Shown: one piece after another, positions 1,974-16,218 of the stretch
How the letters are laid out: each line of letters opens with the position of its first letter
How positions within the stretch are numbered: position 1 is the stretch's first letter
From: Phycisphaerales bacterium
GTDB taxonomy: Bacteria; Planctomycetota; Phycisphaerae; Tepidisphaerales; Tepidisphaeraceae
Assembly (NCBI GenBank): GCA_028291615.1
Contig: JAQGHM010000172.1
Span: forward strand, 1 to 16,377
Reading direction: 5' to 3'
DNA length: 16,377 nt
Notes under the pieces: generated by a model
What the model saw: only the letters and a program-made list of their open reading frames with translations
The model's database searches: none
Told to the model about the DNA's origin: nothing
Translations under genes and position numbers: made by a program

Positions 1974-2381
1974 TCACGTCCCTTCGATCTTCACGAGGAT
2001 CTTGCGCAAGGTATCCAACACTTCCTCCTGAACGGCATCGCGTTTTCCTTCGGTTTCGCCGTCGAGGGTCTTGGCTGCCATGGCTGGGCCCATTGTCATG
2101 AGGGTCGAGCCCAGGAGCTTTCCGAGCGGCGTTTTGGCGAAGATGTCGCCGTAGCCGACGGAGAGGCACGTCGAGCAATAGACCATCGCGTCGAAGACGT
2201 CGTTCACCTTTGGATTGCGGTTCTTCTCAAGCAGGTAGAACAAGACCGTGCTAAGGCCTACGACCGTCGCGGTGTTGCGGCAGGGGGATTCCGCCAGTTT
2301 TCCGGCCCAGCGTTCGAGGTCCGCCCCGAATTCTTCGGGGACGCTCAATCCGATTGCTACCAGGTTTTCACGCAAACCCAT
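1974..2381 (-). CDS. minimal two-TM potassium channel (Ion_trans_2 family)
   Basis: 135-aa ORF with an ATG at 2381. M1 helix TATVVGLSTVLFYLL. Pore helix plus selectivity filter VNDVFDAMVYCSTCLSVGYGDI (K+ channel signature T/SxGYGD). M2 helix LGKLLGSTLMTMGPAMAA. It ends 45 bp upstream of the glcE-like start on the same strand. Confidence 0.7.
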   Translation of the reverse strand: MGLRENLVAIGLSVPEEFGADLERWAGKLAESPCRNTATVVGLSTVLFYLLEKNRNPKVNDVFDAMVYCSTCLSVGYGDIFAKTPLGKLLGSTLMTMGPAMAAKTLDGETEGKRDAVQEEVLDTLRKILVKIEGT

Positions 2382-2457: not shown

Positions 2458-4332
2458 TTACAGCTTGCGGCCCTTCCGCTCGGGCGCATCGGCCACCGCG
2501 ACCTCTGCCGCCGCCGCCGCGCCGTTTCCTTCCGCTGGCTTTGCGCTGAGCTGCGACATCACCGCGTTGCCGATCTTGTCGAGCATCGTCTTGCCTTCTT
2601 CGGGCAGGGTCTTGAGCAGGCCGTCCGCTGCGGCGCCCATGCTGGCGGCGCGCATGAACTGCATGCTCATCTTGGCCATCGTGTCGGGGTCGCCGAAGAT
2701 CTGCATCGTCGCCTTGGCGAACATGTTCCCCAGCGCCTGGGCGGCGGCGATGCGCACCTCGCGCTCGGCGTTGACGCGGTACTTTTCCAGCTCGAACTTC
2801 AGGGCGGCGTCCTCGAATTCCTGCTTGTTCGACAGGCTCTGGCGTTCCACGTCCACGCGCGCCTGCTCGACGCCGACGCGCTCGCGCTCGACGGTCACAT
2901 CGACCATCTTGATCGCGCGTTCGCCGTCGGCGCGCTTGCTTGCCGCCTGGGCGTCGCCGTCCGCCAGCTTCAGCTTGGCCAGGTAGCGCAGGTCGGCGGC
3001 GTCCTTCTCGGCTGTCGCATCCTTGATCTGCGTGTAGGCCATTACGTCCGCTTCGGTCTGGTCGCGGATCTTCTTCTCGTTGATCACCTGCTGGGCGGCG
3101 ATGAGCTTCTTGGCGGCTTCGCGGTCGGCCTCGGCGGTGACCGTGACCGTCACGACGCGCTGCTTGGCGGCCTCGCGCTCGGCCTCGGCGGTCAGCGCGC
3201 TGGCCTGTGCGGTCGCACGCTCCTGCTCCTTCTCCGCGACGGCGACCTCCTTGGCGCGCTCGGCGACTTCCACCGCCTGGCGCTTGACGATCTCGCTGGT
3301 CTCCTGCTCGCGGTTCTTGGCGATCAGCGCGATCTTGCGCGCCACCTGCGCCTGCTCGACCGCCAACGTGCGCTCGACCTCGGCGGTCTCGATCTGCTTC
3401 TGCTTTTCGATGTCGCGGCGGGCGACGGCCTCATCCTGCGAGAGCTTGAACTCGGCCACCTCGCGCTCGCGGGCGGCGCGGACGTTGGCGACCTTGGACC
3501 GCTGGTCGGCTTCAAACTCCGCTTGGTCGCGCTCCATGTCGAGCACCTTTTTCTTGGTCTCGACGTTCTTGGCCACCACCTGCCGCTGCGCTTCCATCTC
3601 AATGTGGTTGCGCTCGACGCGGGCCTTCTGGGTGATCTCGGCGATCTTGCGCAGGCCCTGGGCGTCGAAGACGTTCCGTTCCTGCAGGGCGGATGGGTCG
3701 GTCTGGTCGAGGGACGAGATCGTCACGGACTCGAGCGTTAAGCCGTTGGTCGCGAGGTCGTGGGTGACGATCTCCTGCACTGCCGAGGCGAACTCATCGC
3801 GCTTGGCGTGGAGCTCGACCAATTCCTTGGTCGCCGCCACGGTGCGCAGGGCCGAGACCAGCTTGTCTTCCACCAATTCCGCCACGGCGTCGGGCTGCAC
3901 GCTGCGCCCGCCCAGCGATCTGGCCGCCTGCTGGATGTCCTCACGGCTGGGTTGAACCTTGATGTAGAACTCGGCCGACAGGTCGACGCGGAGGTTGTCC
4001 TTGGTGATCAGGGCATGGGGGCCGCGGCGCTCGACGTTGAGGCGCATCGTCTCCAGCGAGACCGCGGTCAGGTTGTGGATGATCGGGATCACGATCGCGC
4101 CGTCATCGAGGATCACCTTGGGCCCTTTGCCGCCGGTGCGGACGTACGCCATGTTCGCCGAGGTCTTGCGGTAGAAGCGGGTAAAGATGGTGATGAACGC
4201 GACTGCCACCAGTAGAATCGAGCCCACAATCGTGAGCACATAGCCTCCCGTCTGCGGAAGTTGCGGTACCAGCCCGGTCCAGGGGACGATCGCCATTGCG
4301 GCGCCCAGCACGAATAAGAGGATGAGAATCAT
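2458..4332 (-). CDS. flotillin-like SPFH/band-7 family protein (YqiK/FloT-like)
   Basis: The protein has N-terminal hydrophobic helices and an SPFH domain (MAYVRTGGKGPKVILDDGAIVIPIIHNLTAVSLETMRLNVERRGPHALITKDNLRVDLSAEFYIKV, compare E. coli YqiK AFVRTGLGGQKVVMSGGAIVMPIFHE). A very long Glu/Ala/Arg/Lys-rich coiled-coil region follows, typical of flotillins. The track ORF extends to 4395, but that codon is TTG directly abutting the nfeD stop. The first ATG is at 4332 and is preceded by GGAG 7 nt upstream (ttGGAGaactgtcATG), so I call 4332 the start (624 aa). Confidence 0.9.
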   Translation of the reverse strand: MILILLFVLGAAMAIVPWTGLVPQLPQTGGYVLTIVGSILLVAVAFITIFTRFYRKTSANMAYVRTGGKGPKVILDDGAIVIPIIHNLTAVSLETMRLNVERRGPHALITKDNLRVDLSAEFYIKVQPSREDIQQAARSLGGRSVQPDAVAELVEDKLVSALRTVAATKELVELHAKRDEFASAVQEIVTHDLATNGLTLESVTISSLDQTDPSALQERNVFDAQGLRKIAEITQKARVERNHIEMEAQRQVVAKNVETKKKVLDMERDQAEFEADQRSKVANVRAAREREVAEFKLSQDEAVARRDIEKQKQIETAEVERTLAVEQAQVARKIALIAKNREQETSEIVKRQAVEVAERAKEVAVAEKEQERATAQASALTAEAEREAAKQRVVTVTVTAEADREAAKKLIAAQQVINEKKIRDQTEADVMAYTQIKDATAEKDAADLRYLAKLKLADGDAQAASKRADGERAIKMVDVTVERERVGVEQARVDVERQSLSNKQEFEDAALKFELEKYRVNAEREVRIAAAQALGNMFAKATMQIFGDPDTMAKMSMQFMRAASMGAAADGLLKTLPEEGKTMLDKIGNAVMSQLSAKPAEGNGAAAAAEVAVADAPERKGRKL

Positions 4333-4395
4333 GACAGTTCTCCAATTGCAAAGTGTTCGAGTGTTCAATCCCGCCGACACGTTTCGGTCGGTCAA

Positions 4396-5151
4396 TCAAT
4401 CCAGTTGTCTCACGAAGAAAAACCGTTCGTCCGCGCGATACGCCACGAGCTTGACCTTCGCGCCGCGCGGGATCGGCTCGATGCCCGCCGCCACCCGGCA
4501 GGGGAGTTGCTTCAGGTCCCCACGGCCGTCCCGCACCGCTACCAGGCCGAATCGCTCGTCAATTCCGTACAGCGCCTGCCCGACCTCGCCCACGTGGTCG
4601 CTCTGCCGCAGTGCGAGGTTCTGGTTCAGCGGCACGAACCGCGCGATCAGCATCACGAGGGTCCGCGTGATCAGGACGCTGGCGAGCATGGCGAGCGGGA
4701 TTGAGATTCGCGCCGCTTCGAAGTCCGTGCGCGGCCGCAGGATGGCGTTGGTGAGGAAGCCGGCCGCGCCCCACGTCAGCAGGAGGACGAGGGCGATCAG
4801 GCTGAGCGGCACGCGGCCGACGCCCAGCCACGCCAGCGCCGCCAGGTGCGCCGGCGTCTGCTCGGCCTCGTGGGAATCGCTGTCGCCATCGCCGTCGGCA
4901 TCCGAGTCTGCGTCATGCCCATCCGCGTCTGCGTCGGCATGTACATCGCCATCTGCATCGGCATCGATATGCGCGTCAGCATCGGCATCCACATCAGCAT
5001 CGGCATCGGCGTGGATATCGCCGTGCGCATCAGCGTCGGCGTCGCCCATGCCCACGCCGCCCAGCGTGCAGGCGAACAGGTAGACCAGTGCCACCGCGAA
5101 CGGCGCGACGAAGATCAGGTTCCACCAACTGAGAATCCATTGCAGGGTCAT
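4396..5151 (-). CDS. NfeD-like (YqiJ/DUF1449-type) membrane protein with C-terminal OB-fold, partner of flotillin, carrying an inserted Asp/Ala/His-rich repeat
   Basis: ATG at 5151 with GGAGG 8 nt upstream. TM helices at the N-terminus and mid-protein, and a C-terminal beta-rich OB-like segment (GIDERFGLVAVRDGRGDLKQLPCRVAAGIEPIPRGAKVKLVAYRADERFFFVR). It sits immediately upstream of the flotillin gene with a 63-bp gap, the conserved nfeD-flotillin (yqiJ-yqiK) arrangement. Confidence 0.8.
   Translation of the reverse strand: MTLQWILSWWNLIFVAPFAVALVYLFACTLGGVGMGDADADAHGDIHADADADVDADADAHIDADADGDVHADADADGHDADSDADGDGDSDSHEAEQTPAHLAALAWLGVGRVPLSLIALVLLLTWGAAGFLTNAILRPRTDFEAARISIPLAMLASVLITRTLVMLIARFVPLNQNLALRQSDHVGEVGQALYGIDERFGLVAVRDGRGDLKQLPCRVAAGIEPIPRGAKVKLVAYRADERFFFVRQLD
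4870..5043 (-). repeat. imperfect tandem hexamer repeat (GCRTCR units; GCATCGGCATC recurring) inside nfeD-like, encoding ~58 aa of DADA(D/H/G) repeats
   Basis: Directly visible on the plus strand as ...gccatcgccgtcggcatccgagtctgcgtcatgcccatccgcgtctgcgtcggcatgtacatcgccatctgcatcggcatcgatatgcgcgtcagcatcggcatccacatcagcatcggcatcggcgtggatatcgccgtgcgcatcagcgtcggcgtcgcc. Minus-strand translation is DADADAHGDIHADADADVDADADAHIDADADGDVHADADADGHDADSDADGDGDSDSH. Confidence 0.85.
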
Positions 5152-5373
5152 ACGTCACCCCTCCCGGAAAAGAGGGCAAACGACGATTGCGACTCACACA
5201 TCACGAATGGAAGTTTTATCCCCGCCTAATCGGCATGTCCGCTATAACCCCGCGCGCCGAATATAACGCCTTCGGCACACGTCCTGCTCAAGACTTACAG
5301 CGTTATCAGCCCGTCTGCCGCTGGCAGTCGCTTTGCGGTTTCGCCCGTTAAATCGCGCAACAGAAATGGAAAC

Positions 5374-7128: not shown

Positions 7129-8004
7129 CTACGCGGCCGCCGGGAACTGACCCGGTCTTCGAACCAGTCTGGCGTGAAGCGCACGCAGGCGATGCGCGTC
7201 GGCGTCATCGCCCGGCGTCCAGAGGATCGCTTCGGAGGCCGCGGCGCCAAGCGCCTGGGCTCCAGCGATTGGAACGCCCCAGCGCGGTTCGACATCCACC
7301 TCGATCCGCGGCATGCACCGGTCCTTAGCGAGAGTCCGTCCGGCTAGAATGGCGCCGGGCGCACCCGCAATCAACCCCGCTGCAATGGTCGCGCCAGCCA
7401 GCGCCTTGTTCGGCTCGGCGACAACGTCACGCCGCGCGAAACGCACGCGCGCGCCGCCGATTCCGGCAACGTTCACGCGGTATTCCGCCACGAGCGTGAA
7501 GACTCTGGACTGTCCGCGCATCGGGACATCCACCTGCGCCAGCTTGACGGCCGAACCACCCACCGAAACATCGATCGGCGGCACCTCGGCGCTGATCGCA
7601 TTGTCATCGTTCAACACCGAGACCGTGATCCGTGCACGGCGCGGCGCGTCCATCAGGTTCTGTACAGCGAATTCCCAGCGGATGCCGGCTTCGACCTGGC
7701 GGGCTCGACCGACCACATGGATGCCGTTGCACTCCCGTATCTCGCCAGGTTCAAAAAGGATCGCCAGGATGTCGGGATGCAGATCAGGACGCCCAACCGC
7801 GCGAACGTGCCAGAAGCCCAGCGCCGTGATCAAGACGACGATCCCTCCCACCAGTTCGTATGCGAGCGCGTGTTGTCCCGGCGAGGCGTAGACCGCAAAA
7901 GCGGTCGCAAAAATCAATGGGAGGACCATCAACCCGATCGTGATCTGTTGCCAGGTGAGTGCAACAAGGTTCCCCTGCCGTTCGCCCGCGTTTTCGTGAC
8001 TCAT
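7129..8004 (-). CDS. hypothetical membrane protein (two N-terminal TM helices plus ~200-aa soluble domain of unknown function)
   Basis: Long uninterrupted ORF on the same strand, 75 bp upstream of the nuoM-like start. The ATG at 8004 is preceded by GGAG 7 nt upstream (gtctcGGAGcgcacatATG). The longer 8025 start would contain this RBS inside it. Hydrophobic helices are ITIGLMVLPLIFATAFAVYA and LVGGIVVLITALGFW. I recognise no domain. Coding is supported mainly by length, strand context and the RBS. Confidence 0.55.
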   Translation of the reverse strand: MSHENAGERQGNLVALTWQQITIGLMVLPLIFATAFAVYASPGQHALAYELVGGIVVLITALGFWHVRAVGRPDLHPDILAILFEPGEIRECNGIHVVGRARQVEAGIRWEFAVQNLMDAPRRARITVSVLNDDNAISAEVPPIDVSVGGSAVKLAQVDVPMRGQSRVFTLVAEYRVNVAGIGGARVRFARRDVVAEPNKALAGATIAAGLIAGAPGAILAGRTLAKDRCMPRIEVDVEPRWGVPIAGAQALGAAASEAILWTPGDDADAHRLRALHARLVRRPGQFPAAA

Positions 8005-8171
8005 ATGTGCGCTCCGAGACGGCACGGCTGGAACGGCGACGACGTCGTCCCATCGAGCGTGCCGCTGAAGCGTTCATCGGCTGCAAAAGGCGTGCAATTA
8101 AAACGCGCAGGCCTGACATCGCAGGAACTCGAAAGATTAGTTTCTGGCTAAGGCGGGCCCCATTCGACGCA

Positions 8172-9528: not shown

Positions 9529-11973
9529 TTACCGCCCGCCGCTCAGGCGTTTGGCGGCGTCGGTCGCGCTGGCGGCAATCGGGCTGCCGGTGCGGGCGTC
9601 GGCGATGCGCTTCAGCACTTCGATGGCGCGAGCAGTTCCGACCCATTGCAGGACTTCCACCGCGCGAACTTCGCGGAGCCGGGGGCCGGTGACGCTGCCT
9701 TGTTGCAGCGCGGTCAGCAGGACCTCTACGCGCGTGCGGACTTCGCTGGATTGAGTCTCCTTCATCGCTTTGCGTAGCGCGGTGGCGGCGGCGTCCCCCA
9801 ATTCAGCGAGCGCTTTGCCCGCGGTTTCGCGGGCGGTGAATTCGTCGGCGTCGAGACCGGCGATGAGTCGCTCGATGCCGGCGTCGTCGACGGGCGCTGT
9901 GCTGATGAGCTTCGACGCGAGGAAACCGACCGCCGCGTCGCCTCCGGTCGAGAGTTGCCGAATGGCTTGGTAAGCCTTGGCAGGATCGTCGTCCGCTAGA
10001 CCAGACCATAATTCGGCCATCGCGGCGGCATCCACCTCGTGGACTTTAGCCGTCTGGTCGCCGGAACGCGCGACATCCCAGACGATCGCGGTCGTGTCGC
10101 GGCTGGCCGAAACCAGGCGCTTGGAGTCGAAGGAGAAGGCGACGGATGTGAGCCACCCCGTATGGCCGACCAGCCTACGCGTCTGCCGCCCCGAACCAAG
10201 GTCCCACACGCGCACGGTCGGCCGATCCGGCCCGCCCCCCGCGGCGAGCATGCGGCCATCGGGAGAAAAGACGAGACAGGTCCCCGCGTCGCCATCCCCT
10301 TCGAGCAGGCCGCGCACGCTACGGCTAGCGACTTCGACCAGCCGGATCGGTTGCCCACGGCACGCGACGGCCAGCGTCGCGCCATCCGGCGAGAAGGCGA
10401 TCGAATTATCGCCCGCCGACGGGATGGGCAACTGGGTTTCTTCGCGGCCGGTGTCGGCGTCGAAGAGCGTCACATACTTCTTGTCCAGATCGCCGCTGCC
10501 GACGGCGAGATGACGCCCATCCGGCGAGAAGGCGAGCGGCAGTTCGGCCCATTGCCGCGGATCGATGTGAACGGTGAAGCGCTCGTTGCCGGTGCGCGTG
10601 TCGATGACGCGGACGGATGCGTGTCCGTACGTCGCCGCCGCAAGCGCGCCATCGGCGGAGAGCGTGACGCCGTTGACGCCGGGGCCGCTGTTAAGGAGCT
10701 CCAGCGTTCGCAGCTTCGCGGTGCTTACGTCCGATCCGCGCTCAAAGTCGCAGATACGCAGCGTGGCGTCTTCGCCACGAATAACTAGGCGCCGGCCGTT
10801 GCGGGCGGACCCGAGATGCACGTTACCGCGACCGCTGACGCCCATGCGCCCCAGCGCCTGTCCGCTTTGCGCGTCCCAGACGCGCATCGAGCCGTCCTGG
10901 CTCGCGGTGATGATGGTTTTGTCCGAATTGCCGAAGACGGCGGCGCTCAACTCACGCGTGTGGCCAAGTGCGTCAAGCGGCTTCAGGCTCTGGGCATCCC
11001 ACAGGCGGATCGCAAGTTCGGTGCCCGCGGTCGCGAGGATTTTTCCGTCTGGTGACGACGCCATCGCCATGACCCACGCGTCCTCGCGGCCCGTGGCGAC
11101 GAGTTTGCCAGCGTCCTTGCCGCTCTCGGTCTCCCACACGCCGACTGTCCCGTCCTGCGCGGCCGACGCAAACTGACGCCCGCCGTTGACGAACGCTACC
11201 GGCCGCACCCAGTGATCGGACAGCTCGACCCGTCGCACCTCAGTCGACGTTGCCAGATCCCATAGCCTCGTGGTTCGATCCGCGCCGCCGGAGAGTAGTC
11301 GCGTGCCGTCCGGATGGAAGGCCAGCGCGAAGACCGCCTTCGCGTGGCCCTGGAGCGTCGTAACCAGTGTCCCATCGGCGACGCGCCGGATCTGGATCGA
11401 TCCCCCTTCGCACCCGACCGCCAGCGTTTGTTCGTCCGGAGAGAGCACGACCGGGCGCACGTTGTTACCGGTGTCGATGCTGCGCTCCTCGCGCCACGCG
11501 GCCACGTCCCAGATCCGCACCAGTTTGCCGCTGCTCCACACCAGGCGTTTGCCGTCGCCCGAGAAGCGAAGCCAGAAGACGGTGTTCGGGTTGTCGGTGA
11601 GGCGATGAAGTTCCTTCCCGGTTCGCGCGTCCCACAGGACGGTCGTGCGCTGCATGTCCCCCGATGCGACCAGCAGGCCGTCGGGAGAAATGGCCACCGC
11701 GGACGCCCCATCCCCGTGCCCCGAGAAGCGGCTGACTTCGCGACCGCTGGCGACGTCCCAGACGCGCGCGGTCTGGTCCCAACTCGCCGACGCGAGCAGT
11801 TTGCCGTCGCCGGAGAAGGAGAGGGCGCTGACGGTGTGCCCGTGGCGGAGGTCACGCGTCCCCAGACAGGCAATCGCGCCCGGCGGCAACTCATCGGCGT
11901 CAACCGCGGCCGCCAACGCGATCACCGAGATCATTCCCAATAACCACGGAGCAAACAGTGTCCATCGGCTCAT
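9529..11973 (-). CDS. secreted WD40-repeat beta-propeller protein with C-terminal HEAT/PBS-lyase-like repeats
   Basis: 814 aa. ATG at 11973 with AGGAG 9 nt upstream. N-terminal signal peptide MSRWTLFAPWLLGMISVIALAAAVDA. At least 12 WD40 units recur, with the pattern ...VxFSPDGxxLAxxxxDxTxRxWD. The C-terminal ~120 aa are helical repeats (LIAGLDADEFTARETAGKALAELGDAAATALRKAM...). Confidence 0.9.
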   Translation of the reverse strand: MSRWTLFAPWLLGMISVIALAAAVDADELPPGAIACLGTRDLRHGHTVSALSFSGDGKLLASASWDQTARVWDVASGREVSRFSGHGDGASAVAISPDGLLVASGDMQRTTVLWDARTGKELHRLTDNPNTVFWLRFSGDGKRLVWSSGKLVRIWDVAAWREERSIDTGNNVRPVVLSPDEQTLAVGCEGGSIQIRRVADGTLVTTLQGHAKAVFALAFHPDGTRLLSGGADRTTRLWDLATSTEVRRVELSDHWVRPVAFVNGGRQFASAAQDGTVGVWETESGKDAGKLVATGREDAWVMAMASSPDGKILATAGTELAIRLWDAQSLKPLDALGHTRELSAAVFGNSDKTIITASQDGSMRVWDAQSGQALGRMGVSGRGNVHLGSARNGRRLVIRGEDATLRICDFERGSDVSTAKLRTLELLNSGPGVNGVTLSADGALAAATYGHASVRVIDTRTGNERFTVHIDPRQWAELPLAFSPDGRHLAVGSGDLDKKYVTLFDADTGREETQLPIPSAGDNSIAFSPDGATLAVACRGQPIRLVEVASRSVRGLLEGDGDAGTCLVFSPDGRMLAAGGGPDRPTVRVWDLGSGRQTRRLVGHTGWLTSVAFSFDSKRLVSASRDTTAIVWDVARSGDQTAKVHEVDAAAMAELWSGLADDDPAKAYQAIRQLSTGGDAAVGFLASKLISTAPVDDAGIERLIAGLDADEFTARETAGKALAELGDAAATALRKAMKETQSSEVRTRVEVLLTALQQGSVTGPRLREVRAVEVLQWVGTARAIEVLKRIADARTGSPIAASATDAAKRLSGGR

Positions 11974-12093: not shown

Positions 12094-13023
12094 TCATCCC
12101 GCCGCAGAACTAGGCGCAGGAGATTCAGGCGGCCGATCCGTCTTCCCCGCAATCGGCGCAGCCGCTGCAGCAGAGGCACTGGCCAGGTTCGACGCGATCT
12201 GCCCCTTCTGGATGATGTGCCGACCCAGCTCCAGGCGCGTGATCACCGCGTCCATGTCCACCGGCCGCTTCTGCTGCTTGGTCGAAACGCAATCCATCAC
12301 CAGGTTCGAGACCGCCTGCGGAACCTTCGGGTTCAGGTCCATCGGCGTGTCGATCCGGTCATCGAGCAGGAAGCTGTTCTCACCCTTTTTATTCACCGTA
12401 TACAGCGTCGGGATGTGCTTGCCCGTCAGGTTCCAGTAGAGCGTCGCACCGAGGTTGAACACGTCCGTCTGCTGGTTGATCGGTTTGCGGTTCACCTGTT
12501 CGGGCGCGATGTAGTCCGGCGTTCCCTGGATGCGCTCCTTGATCGTGCCGATCTTGCACGCCTGCCCGAAGTCGATCACCTTCACGTGCCCCTTGTCGTT
12601 GCGCAGGATGTTGTTCGGCTTGATGTCGCAATGCGCCCATCCCATCTGGTGCATCGCCTTGAGCCCCTGCGCCGCCTGGATGAACGTGTCCAGGATGTCC
12701 ATCATTTCCGTCGGCGGGCGCACGTCCAGCGGCTTGCCGTCGACCATCTCCATCACCAGGTACGCCTCGGCCACCTTCACGAGCATCGTCTTGATGATTT
12801 TCAGCTCGAACGACTTGCGAAGGTTCGGGTGATTGAACTGCCGGCTGACCTCGTACTCGGTCTCCACCTGCTCGACGAAGCGAATATCCTTCTGTTCGGC
12901 GCGGATGACGTGTTTGAGCGCGAAAACTTGGCGGGTGGTCGGGTCACTGACGGCGTAAATCACGCTGCGCGCGCCCTCCCCAAGCTTCTCCAGGACGTCG
13001 TACTGAAGTAATTTCTGCGCCAT
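12094..13023 (-). CDS. Ser/Thr protein kinase (Hanks-type)
   Basis: 309 aa, ATG at 13023. Glycine loop LGEGARSVIY, catalytic lysine in VFALKHV, catalytic loop HCDIKPNNIL, DFG, and activation-segment GTPDYIAPE. The C-terminal tail is Ala/Ser/Pro-rich and low-complexity. Confidence 0.9.
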   Translation of the reverse strand: MAQKLLQYDVLEKLGEGARSVIYAVSDPTTRQVFALKHVIRAEQKDIRFVEQVETEYEVSRQFNHPNLRKSFELKIIKTMLVKVAEAYLVMEMVDGKPLDVRPPTEMMDILDTFIQAAQGLKAMHQMGWAHCDIKPNNILRNDKGHVKVIDFGQACKIGTIKERIQGTPDYIAPEQVNRKPINQQTDVFNLGATLYWNLTGKHIPTLYTVNKKGENSFLLDDRIDTPMDLNPKVPQAVSNLVMDCVSTKQQKRPVDMDAVITRLELGRHIIQKGQIASNLASASAAAAAPIAGKTDRPPESPAPSSAAG

Positions 13024-15170: not shown

Positions 15171-16151
15171 TCACGGATTCCAGAGATAGTAGAACCCCGA
15201 CGGCAATGGGTCATGCACGCCCGGGATCTTTAACTCCATCACCCCACCGCCGTTCGCCTGAGGTTGCCCAACCGTGTTCTGGGCGTAAATCGAACCGCTG
15301 AATCCATACGGTCTCCGATAGATTACGACCTTGGCGTTGGGCGCGTTCGCCAGTTTCATCGCCTCCTCGATCGCGTCGTCCAGCAGCCCCGTCCGATCCG
15401 CCAGGCCCAGTTCCACCGCGCGGGTCCCGCTGAACACCCGGCCGTCGGTCACCATTTTTACGGTTGCACTCTCTTTGATCGGACGGTTGCTCGTCACCAC
15501 TGCGATGAATCGCTGGTAATACTCGTCCACCATCCCCTGCATGACCGCCCGCGACTCCACATCCAGTTCCCGGAACGGCGAGCCCATGTCCTTCAGTGGG
15601 CCGCTCTTGATTGCGTCGGTCTTCGCACCGATTTTGGCCAGCGTTCCTTCGAGGTTAAACGTGTTGAAGATCACCCCGATGCTCCCCACCACGCTGGTCG
15701 GATGCGCGACGATCTTGTCCGCCCCACATGAGACGTAATACGCCCCGCTCGCTGCCAGGTCCTGCAGCGACGCGACGACCGGTTTGTGCGTTTGTTGCTT
15801 AAATCGCACCAGCGTCTCGTACATGATGTCCGATGCCGTTACGGTCCCGCCCGGTGAGTTCACCCGGAGCACCACCGCCTTGACGGCTGGGTCCTTCGCC
15901 GCCTTCTCCAGTTCCTGCGCGAACCGGCTGACCTGGTTTTCCGCCGGCTGCATGAAGCCGCCGGACTTCATATTGGCGATCATCCCCTCGACTTCGACGA
16001 TCGCGATCTTGGGGGCGCCAAACCCCTTCCCCGCCCGCACCGTCTGCTCGTCGAGGCTGCTGGTATTCTGAACCGGCGTGACCAGAAAGCTGGGCGTCCC
16101 GCAGCCGCTTGCAAACAACGACAGCAATGCGGCAAAAACTAATCGCTTCAT
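15171..16151 (-). CDS. sppA: signal peptide peptidase SppA (36K type, peptidase S49), lipoprotein
   Basis: The ATG at 16151 is preceded by GGAG 7 nt upstream. The track start at 16163 is GTG. Lipoprotein signal MKRLVFAALLSLFASGC (lipobox ASGC). S49 hallmarks: IAIVEVEGMI, VKAVVLRVNSPGGTVTASDIMYETL, PVVASLQDLAASGAYYVSCGADKIVAHPTSVVGSIGV (catalytic Ser in AASGAYY), and a Lys-containing KSGPLKD block. Confidence 0.9.
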   Translation of the reverse strand: MKRLVFAALLSLFASGCGTPSFLVTPVQNTSSLDEQTVRAGKGFGAPKIAIVEVEGMIANMKSGGFMQPAENQVSRFAQELEKAAKDPAVKAVVLRVNSPGGTVTASDIMYETLVRFKQQTHKPVVASLQDLAASGAYYVSCGADKIVAHPTSVVGSIGVIFNTFNLEGTLAKIGAKTDAIKSGPLKDMGSPFRELDVESRAVMQGMVDEYYQRFIAVVTSNRPIKESATVKMVTDGRVFSGTRAVELGLADRTGLLDDAIEEAMKLANAPNAKVVIYRRPYGFSGSIYAQNTVGQPQANGGGVMELKIPGVHDPLPSGFYYLWNP

Positions 16152-16218
16152 CAAGGACTCCACAAAATATCGCGCGGGGCTGGACGTGCTAAACTGACTC
16201 GGCCAAGGATTGTAGCCG
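16152..16218. promoter_or_regulatory. divergent intergenic region between sppA (-) and the plus-strand metallopeptidase-like gene
   Basis: This 67-bp gap separates two divergently oriented starts and contains RBS-like motifs for both (GGAG for sppA, AGGA 9 nt before the ATG at 16219). Promoter elements are not confidently identifiable by eye. Confidence 0.3.

Follow-up and report, generated by a model that had tools for sequence, protein, structure and literature searches.

The closest described relatives of the protein analysed here are the NfeD-type membrane partners of flotillins. YuaF and YqiJ are regarded as NfeD homologues by structure and operon, not by sequence (PMC2636767), and the oligonucleotide/oligosaccharide-binding (OB) domain of S. 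aureus NfeD is cytoplasmic and contacts flotillin (PMC11222466). In E. coli, YqiJ (b3050) is a DUF1449 inner-membrane protein encoded in the yqiJK operon with the flotillin YqiK. Our analysis concerned a stretch of 16,377 nucleotides from a Phycisphaerales bacterium (contig JAQGHM010000172.1, hereafter the window), in which a minus-strand gene at 4396..5151 encodes a 251-amino-acid member of the YqiJ/DUF1449 family, an NfeD-type flotillin partner. Codons 37-94 of this gene (4870..5043, minus strand) encode an (Asp-x)n repeat loop, and such a loop is a family-wide, selected feature of the YqiJ/DUF1449 branch. With a probability of about 0.5, we read its sequence as that of a disordered, multivalent, polyanionic cation-binding loop at the flotillin microdomain.

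The window protein shares the YqiJ_N family with E. coli YqiJ and has the same layout, in which a first transmembrane (TM) helix, TM1, is followed by a loop, a G-R-x-P motif, TM2, TM3 and a soluble C-terminal domain; both genes lie directly 5′ of a flotillin gene. The loops differ in size. The E. coli protein has only GALDAHLDHYDSITTGH at this place, about 17 hydrophilic residues with the rudimentary pattern LDAHLDHYD, compared with 58 repeat residues in the window protein. Assignment of the open reading frame (ORF) was based on its match to Pfam YqiJ_N (PF21001; 33.8 bits against a cut-off of 23, E 4e-8, profile positions 3-115 of 116) and on its 100% identity to NCBI MDB5320857.1, from a Phycisphaerales metagenome-assembled genome. 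The same Pfam family was found on nearly all of the 120 homologues among the matches listed by a search with the full protein. Since 146 residues of the window protein span 113 profile positions, the Pfam model evidently mirrors short-loop members. Like NfeD proteins, the window protein has three TM helices and is the operon partner of an SPFH protein (PMC2636767); unlike them, it is not recognised at sequence level by the Pfam NfeD model. An earlier note on this DNA had named the gene a YqiJ-type NfeD partner of a flotillin, and that identification stands with the YqiJ_N match, an NfeD-like fold and an adjoining Band_7 gene. As a gene of the YqiJ/DUF1449 branch of NfeD proteins, the window gene is unremarkable, and its operon with a flotillin is the usual one.

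The repeat was defined by direct reading of the sequence, Tandem Repeats Finder, shuffled controls and predicted disorder. The peptide that had been read from 4870-5043 matches residues 37-94 exactly, namely DADADAHGDIHADADADVDADADAHIDADADGDVHADADADGHDADSDADGDGDSDSH. It contains 24 Asp, 6 His and no Lys or Arg in 58 residues, and its net charge is about -26 when the flanking E95 and E97 are included. In its Asp and His content it resembles a cation-binding tract, as had been proposed from the letters. The lag-2 autocorrelation of acidic residues was 0.56, compared with -0.01 +/- 0.12 in 5000 shuffles (shuffle maximum 0.44). A value above all shuffles indicates that the alternation of Asp is not a chance product of composition. 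The motif D-x-D-x-D-G occurs three times (DADADG twice and DADGDG once) and is present in 102 of 253 family loops; with such a composition, frequent chance occurrence is expected. A PDB sequence search with the loop peptide returned compositional matches to circumsporozoite protein repeats only, with no solved analogue. Two further database matches were rejected as compositional: a Pfam TrAA12 match below its cut-off, and NCBIfam MSCRAMM matches (E about 1e-5) that reached 20-24 bits against cut-offs of 999-2500.

Since the source is a metagenome-assembled genome and repeats are prone to mis-assembly, we considered that the loop could be an assembly or sequencing artefact, or a spurious ORF running across a simple repeat. 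The frame is open, however, and the repeat is bounded on both sides by conserved flanks with invariant motifs. Equivalent loops are present in dozens of independent assemblies, and an independent copy that is 97% identical has a loop of the same length. An artefact had already been judged unlikely from the open frame, and with an identical NCBI protein as well as these copies and homologues we consider it hardly credible.

The same loop position was then compared across the family. In the full-protein search, an Asp-x loop was found at this position in 120 of 120 homologues among the matches listed; their loops were 29-94 amino acids long, about 35-40% Asp and essentially without Lys or Arg. 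Because that search was possibly biased by the repeat, a loop-free query (residues 94-251) was run against 1.84 billion protein cluster representatives, giving 120 full-length representatives. At least four consecutive [D/E/H]-x dipeptides followed TM1 in 106 of these, at least three His were present in the loops of 102, and 90 loops had no Lys or Arg. Median loop length was 52 amino acids (10th percentile 31, 90th percentile 86). Asp and His made up 21.5% and 11.4% of the loops but 3.4% and 1.2% of the remainder of the same proteins. These results do not bear out the view that the tract is an insertion peculiar to this gene. The accompanying statement that canonical YqiJ/NfeD proteins have a short loop is right for E. 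coli YqiJ, a short-loop outlier at about the 10th percentile, but does not hold for the family as a whole.

Many members carry the form (D-H-D-hydrophobic)n, such as DHDVDHDLDHDV in P0198 and P0253. In others the loops are dominated by His instead of Asp (L063 of Candidatus Uhrbacteria, L014, L025, L031 and L033/L035); the L063 loop, HIGHGMHHIHIHHDHSVGHSHVVPHGHAHAHHE, has 16 His and 3 acidic residues. A genome scan, with one genome per species and the W-L-G-V-G-R-V-P motif as search pattern, recovered the same arrangement in Tepidisphaerales/Phycisphaerae, other Planctomycetota, Desulfobacterales, Latescibacterota, Chloroflexota, Thermomicrobiales, Armatimonadota, Abditibacteriia, Thermoanaerobaculia and a Candidate Phyla Radiation (CPR; Uhrbacteria) genome, and in nearly all of these lineages the yqiJ-like gene is followed by an ORF of 600-700 amino acids. 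What is conserved is a metal-ligand residue, a spacer and again a metal-ligand residue, without Lys or Arg. Judged from these sequences, a periodic loop rich in Asp, Glu and His and poor in Lys and Arg is the family norm in more than 10 phyla, and the loop of the window protein is of typical length. No description of the loop was found in the searchable literature on YqiJ, DUF1449 and NfeD with flotillin, the literature examined on NfeD proteins included, and 'histidine-rich' did not co-occur with NfeD in the literature found for NfeD and flotillin. Elsewhere, yqiJ is listed in an E. coli silver screen and appears as an indel in a Salmonella egg-white study, both without mechanistic content.

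The two registers of the repeat are occupied very differently. In the clade of the window, His falls in the Asp register 103 times against 11, while the spacer register holds Ala (428 against 20) and Val, Ile, Leu, Phe or Met (155 against 2). In other clades, it is between the Asp that His is found, in alternation with hydrophobic residues (467 against 210). Selection was assessed by comparing the window gene with an 88%-identical orthologue (L002, 6001-6738). Asp was kept in 21 of 22 aligned loop positions, nine of them with a changed codon. The proportions of synonymous and nonsynonymous differences (pS and pN) were 0.82 and 0.10 in the loop (pN/pS 0.125) and 0.38 and 0.02 in the gene remainder. 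On these counts, the alternating Asp pattern clearly appears to be under purifying selection, with the amino-acid pattern kept while the DNA is not. As a separate observation, the twofold higher pS of the loop suggests either rapid repeat-unit turnover or alignment misregister.

At the DNA level, the periodicity is far from perfect, contrary to what had been supposed. Tandem Repeats Finder reported periods of 6 (11.2 copies, 68% matches), 18, 24 and 48 nucleotides (80% matches, score 127) over 4920-5018, and the longest exactly 6-periodic tract is 14 nucleotides in the window and 11 and 17 nucleotides in two orthologues. Synonymous codons are mixed. GAT accounts for 15 of 24 loop Asp codons (15:9 GAT:GAC), compared with 32% (64:136) in eight other window genes (Fisher p=0.006), and GCT plus GCA for 6 of 16 loop Ala codons, compared with 10% in the same eight genes (p=0.005). 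The GC content at third codon positions (GC3) is 0.58 in the loop, 0.90 in the gene remainder and 0.83 in other genes. Two orthologues showed a weaker difference in the same direction (0.69 against 0.81, and 0.74 against 0.80). This codon bias could possibly come from selection against perfect repeats or from a history of expanded units. With a DNA repeat as degenerate as this, the pattern is not kept up by slippage alone.

These data bear on the suggestion that the tract is a contingency locus, that is, a hypermutable variable-number tandem repeat whose slipped-strand changes would rapidly vary loop length within a population. Length does vary in the expected steps. The alignment of homologues that the earlier note had proposed for counting repeats showed that relatives 93-97% identical, belonging to the same 90%-identity clusters, differ by 2-amino-acid units inside the loop only, with no internal indels in their TM and OB parts; one relative (P0272) has an expanded GN/GD (GNGNGN) run, and the sole indels between the window gene and L002 are of 6 and 12 nucleotides, within the loop. 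So far, then, slipped-strand variability stands as steps of 6 nucleotides among near-identical relatives. High-rate slippage, on the other hand, is contradicted by the short exact repeats and by the mixed codons, which lower slippage, and the independent 97% relative mentioned above has a loop of the same length as the window gene. Because the units are of 6 nucleotides and all indels seen are in frame, there is no frameshift or on/off switching of the gene. The observations fit Asp-x units being gained and lost over evolutionary time while purifying selection preserves the pattern, and we regard a high-rate contingency locus as very improbable.

The architecture of the protein was modelled with AlphaFold2 using 60 homologues (mean predicted local distance difference test score, pLDDT, 73). 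TM1 is formed by residues 3-30 (5062..5145, minus strand), with a conserved WWNLIF motif in which W9, N11, L12 and P17 are invariant in the aligned homologues. After the loop, a short amphipathic helix (residues 101-109) and the W-L-G-V-G-R-V-P motif (together residues 101-115, 4807..4851, minus strand) lead into TM2 (residues 116-138, 4738..4806, minus strand), which is followed by TM3 (residues 145-172, 4636..4719, minus strand). The repeat tract does lie between TM1 and the next TM block, where it had been placed from sequence. In the motif before TM2, whose family form is W-x-G-x-G-[RK]-x-P, residues G110, G112 and P115 do not vary, and at least 90% of homologues have R113. It is this motif, just after the acidic loop, and not the TM helices or the OB domain, that forms the family's most conserved element. 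A disorder prediction for the loop had also been called for, and residues 31-100 are indeed predicted to be disordered (pLDDT 43-53), the D-x-D-x-D-G stretches among them; AlphaFold2 models no ions.

The C-terminal domain (residues 183-249, 4405..4605, minus strand) is modelled with pLDDT 90-97 as an NfeD-like OB-fold beta-barrel. The Pfam NfeD model matched neither the whole protein at E<=0.01 nor residues 173-251 at E<=1. Since the C-terminal 79 residues have no Pfam match, the OB assignment depends on the fold search. Foldseek against the PDB gave YbbJ of the E. coli QmcA-YbbJ SPFH-NfeD complex (8z5g, E 2e-5) as top match, followed by the 1510-C NfeD domain 3wwv (TM-score 0.80, root-mean-square deviation 1.7 A) and 3cp0, with E values from 2e-5 to 6e-4 overall. 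Across the solved NfeD OB domains compared (YbbJ, 8z5g; P. horikoshii 1510-C, 3wwv; 3cp0; B. subtilis YuaF), the barrel superposes with TM-scores of 0.79-0.80 and deviations of 1.7-2.6 A. Based on the operon structure and on the published FloA-NfeD and QmcA-YbbJ complexes, the OB domain probably contacts the partner SPFH protein.

In this model, the three TM helices leave the repeat loop facing the same side of the membrane as the C-terminal OB domain. Among 253 aligned members, Lys and Arg are concentrated in the 18 residues after TM3 (mean 3.1) and at the G-[RK]-x-P motif; hardly any occur in the N-terminus (0.16) or the loop (0.29 per about 64 residues). In the flotillin encoded in the window, the N-terminal hydrophobic hairpin is followed by TRFYRK, which by the positive-inside rule places the SPFH domain in the cytoplasm. 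Taking these features together with the cytoplasmic OB domain of S. aureus NfeD and the pairing of YbbJ with QmcA in 8z5g, we infer that the topology is N-out/C-in, which would put the acidic loop at the cytoplasmic face beside the flotillin assembly.

A loop of charge about -26 without Lys or Arg, on the flotillin side of the membrane, might also serve as a polyanionic holdase or electrostatic organiser. In the manner of the poly-Asp/Glu tracts by which client proteins are kept soluble, it would help the flotillin-NfeD complex to hold unfolded or basic clients, or it would repel or Mg2+-bridge anionic lipids to shape the microdomain. FloA-NfeD stabilises unfolded proteins without ATP (PMC11222466), and acidic residues alternating with small or hydrophobic ones would give an amphipathic extended strand. 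However, S. aureus NfeD belongs to a different subfamily, NfeD alone has no holdase activity, and that report uses neither the word 'loop' nor the word 'acidic' (PMC11222466). Further, the His-dominated variants with few acidic residues do not fit a role based on charge only. We consider a holdase or organiser function unlikely.

The proposed cation-binding function takes both registers into account. Since His is enriched tenfold and stands in the Asp register, loops range from Asp-only to His-dominated, and Lys and Arg are excluded, the loop appears to be selected as a set of ligand side chains. One register would then supply metal ligands (Asp, some Glu, and His) and the other spacers (Ala, Gly, Val, Ile and Leu). 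The loop would lie on the same, presumably cytoplasmic, face as the OB domain that docks onto flotillin, either beneath the flotillin assembly or within it. Each subunit would contribute about 26 carboxylates and 6 imidazoles, so that an oligomeric YqiJ-flotillin complex could line the membrane surface with a dense polyanionic brush, its carboxylates and imidazoles numbering in the hundreds. Binding would be multivalent and of low to moderate affinity, with Mg2+ and Ca2+ bound by carboxylates, Zn2+, Fe2+, Mn2+ or Ni2+ where His takes part, and protons too. Cation binding would neutralise and compact the loop, and thereby couple local cation status to the flotillin microdomain or buffer cations there. 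Loop length itself drifts as 6-nucleotide (Asp-x) units are gained and lost, with selection keeping the pattern.

Several known sequence types resemble the loop. The disordered cytosolic loops of RcnA, ZIP and CDF transporters are rich in His, Asp and Glu, and the tails of the metallochaperones HypB, SlyD and UreE in His; the window loop is likewise of low complexity, disordered, poor in Lys and Arg, and rich in ligands near the membrane. One homologue (P0087) has been auto-annotated as 'RcnA' by the Joint Genome Institute (JGI). Unlike the RcnA, ZIP, CDF and HypB proteins, however, the window protein has no transporter or GTPase core, and Asp far exceeds His in its clade. A search for a metal-transporter core gave none, with YqiJ_N as the only Pfam match and only compositional matches in NCBIfam. 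In addition, a strict two-residue periodicity is not typical of RcnA/ZIP/CDF-type loops. The (Asp-Y)n repeats of biomineral matrix proteins and the DxDxDG motifs are extracellular or lie within folded Ca2+ sites. As in these, Asp-x would give an evenly spaced carboxylate face in an extended chain, but the window loop is predicted to be disordered and probably lies in the cytoplasm, with its very low free Ca2+. The loop shares no homology with the RcnA/ZIP/CDF loops, the DxDxDG motifs or the (Asp-Y)n repeats. The Ser-Asp stalks of MSCRAMM proteins (SdrC, SdrD, ClfA and ClfB) are likewise dipeptide repeats in which every second residue is Asp, but the window protein has no adhesin domain, LPXTG motif or secretion signal. 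With scores far below cut-off and no adhesin architecture, this likeness is purely compositional.

An older finding may be related to a cation-binding loop. In a Shewanella mutant deleted for the flotillin SO1377, free iron detectable by electron paramagnetic resonance was threefold lower and siderophore output was diminished; for its DUF1449 partner SO1376, a role as metallochaperone was put forward as speculation (PMC1468410). This ties the operon type to metal homeostasis, but the iron phenotype is pleiotropic and concerns the flotillin rather than the loop. Other points also weigh against cation binding. AlphaFold2 predicted no ordered site in the loop. Loops of Asp and Ala without any His occur in L020 and L021. 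Loop length in the family runs from 9 to 138 amino acids, and is very short in E. coli and Thermomicrobiales, so that any function must tolerate great variation or be dispensable. Among 117 ORFs flanking 44 homologous loci, no metal transporter or metalloregulator was recurrent; the genes that did recur were limited to Ion_trans_2 (7), pyruvate kinase (4) and methyltransferases (3). The pN/pS value comes from a repeat alignment that is perhaps out of register. The cytoplasmic placement is putative; a loop this acidic might, in principle, be exported. Metal binding and sensing are likewise putative.

Some of these points would also be expected of a low-complexity spacer or entropic bristle, a long, flexible, soluble and membrane-excluded linker from TM1 to the TM2-TM3-OB part that is easily made by slippage and has no specific ligand. 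The predicted disorder, the 15-fold range of lengths, the frequent unit indels confined to the loop, the free variation at spacer positions, the absence of conserved metal-related neighbour genes and the sufficiency of about 17 hydrophilic residues in E. coli all agree with it. A spacer would leave unexplained, however, the tenfold enrichment of His, the near-total exclusion of Lys and Arg over more than 10 phyla, the strict register of His with Asp and of hydrophobic residues with Ala, and the retention of Asp under saturated synonymous change. For these reasons, we regard a spacer without ligand as possible but somewhat unlikely.

The organisation of the locus was also examined. A Shine-Dalgarno-like sequence, GGGAGGGG, was read directly at 5158..5165 (minus strand), 6 nucleotides 5′ of the yqiJ-like ATG, and M1 is invariant in the 60 aligned homologues. 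Two overlapping plus-strand ORFs (4322..5083 and 4846..5229) were dismissed in favour of the minus-strand gene with its Pfam match and hundreds of homologues. The flotillin/SPFH gene lies directly downstream (2458..4332, minus strand; Pfam Band_7, 8e-19) and encodes a protein that begins with a hydrophobic hairpin and continues with a Band_7 domain and a long coiled coil. Its longest ORF extends to 4395, but its probable start is the ATG at 4332 because of synteny, the gap after yqiJ being 64 nucleotides in L002 and 52 in L004. The coiled-coil part contains an imperfect 21-nucleotide (7-amino-acid) tandem repeat of its own at 3166-3222 on the minus strand (Tandem Repeats Finder score 63), which corresponds to a duplicated ...AEAEREAAKQ.../...AEADREAAKK... 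segment. An upstream, co-oriented yqiJ is found with the flotillin (SPFH2) gene in the window, in L002 and L004 and in about 50 genomic loci.

Directly after the flotillin gene is a small 135-amino-acid ORF (1974..2381, minus strand; Pfam Ion_trans_2, 2e-8) resembling a two-TM (2TM) K+ channel. It carries an SVGYGD filter, with the K+ selectivity filter reading YCSTCLSVGYGDIFAKTP, and appears to encode a minimal, pore-only 2TM channel. In 10 related Tepidisphaerales/Phycisphaerae loci (L004 5919-6368, L005 5767-6186, L008-L011, L013, L015, L026 and L028), but not in other phyla, the mini K+ channel gene likewise comes right after the flotillin gene. The genes for yqiJ, flotillin and mini K+ channel are a conserved three-gene cluster in this clade only, of which we know no earlier description. 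The presence of the channel agrees loosely with a cation-related role.

Other genes of the window were noted as well. A multiple-WD40-repeat protein of 814 amino acids (9529-11973, minus strand) is encoded directly downstream of a 309-amino-acid ORF with a Ser/Thr protein kinase domain (12094-13023, minus strand), and the two could represent a kinase-WD40 pair or one split gene. An SppA-like Peptidase_S49 protein (15171-16163, minus strand) also scores below threshold (34 bits, cut-off 40) with NfeD1b_N, a model of the ClpP-like protease domain found in long NfeD proteins; this probably reflects just the shared ClpP/S49 fold. A 298-amino-acid ORF (7129-8025, minus strand), located between a Proton_antipo_M (NuoM/Mrp-like) gene and argG, has no Pfam match.

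A wider, rather doubtful extension of the cation-binding proposal is that the loop of YqiJ-type NfeD proteins would be a high-capacity buffer or sensor of cations (Fe2+, Zn2+, Mn2+, Mg2+ or protons) on the cytoplasmic membrane face, enclosed by the flotillin assembly. Flotillin microdomains of many phyla would then be cation-handling compartments, and the Tepidisphaerales/Phycisphaerae version would have been extended by a co-operonic minimal K+ channel into a flotillin-caged ion-handling unit.

In conclusion, the repeat of the window gene is a typical trait of its family and not a singular insertion. YqiJ/DUF1449 stands out as a whole branch of NfeD proteins with a selected Asp/His-rich loop on the flotillin side, in which the model organism E. 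coli has an atypically short version. A concrete hypothesis that is cheap to test follows, through cation binding by the loop and the phenotypes of loop swaps, and it may provide a tie to the altered labile-iron pool reported long ago for the Shewanella flotillin mutant.

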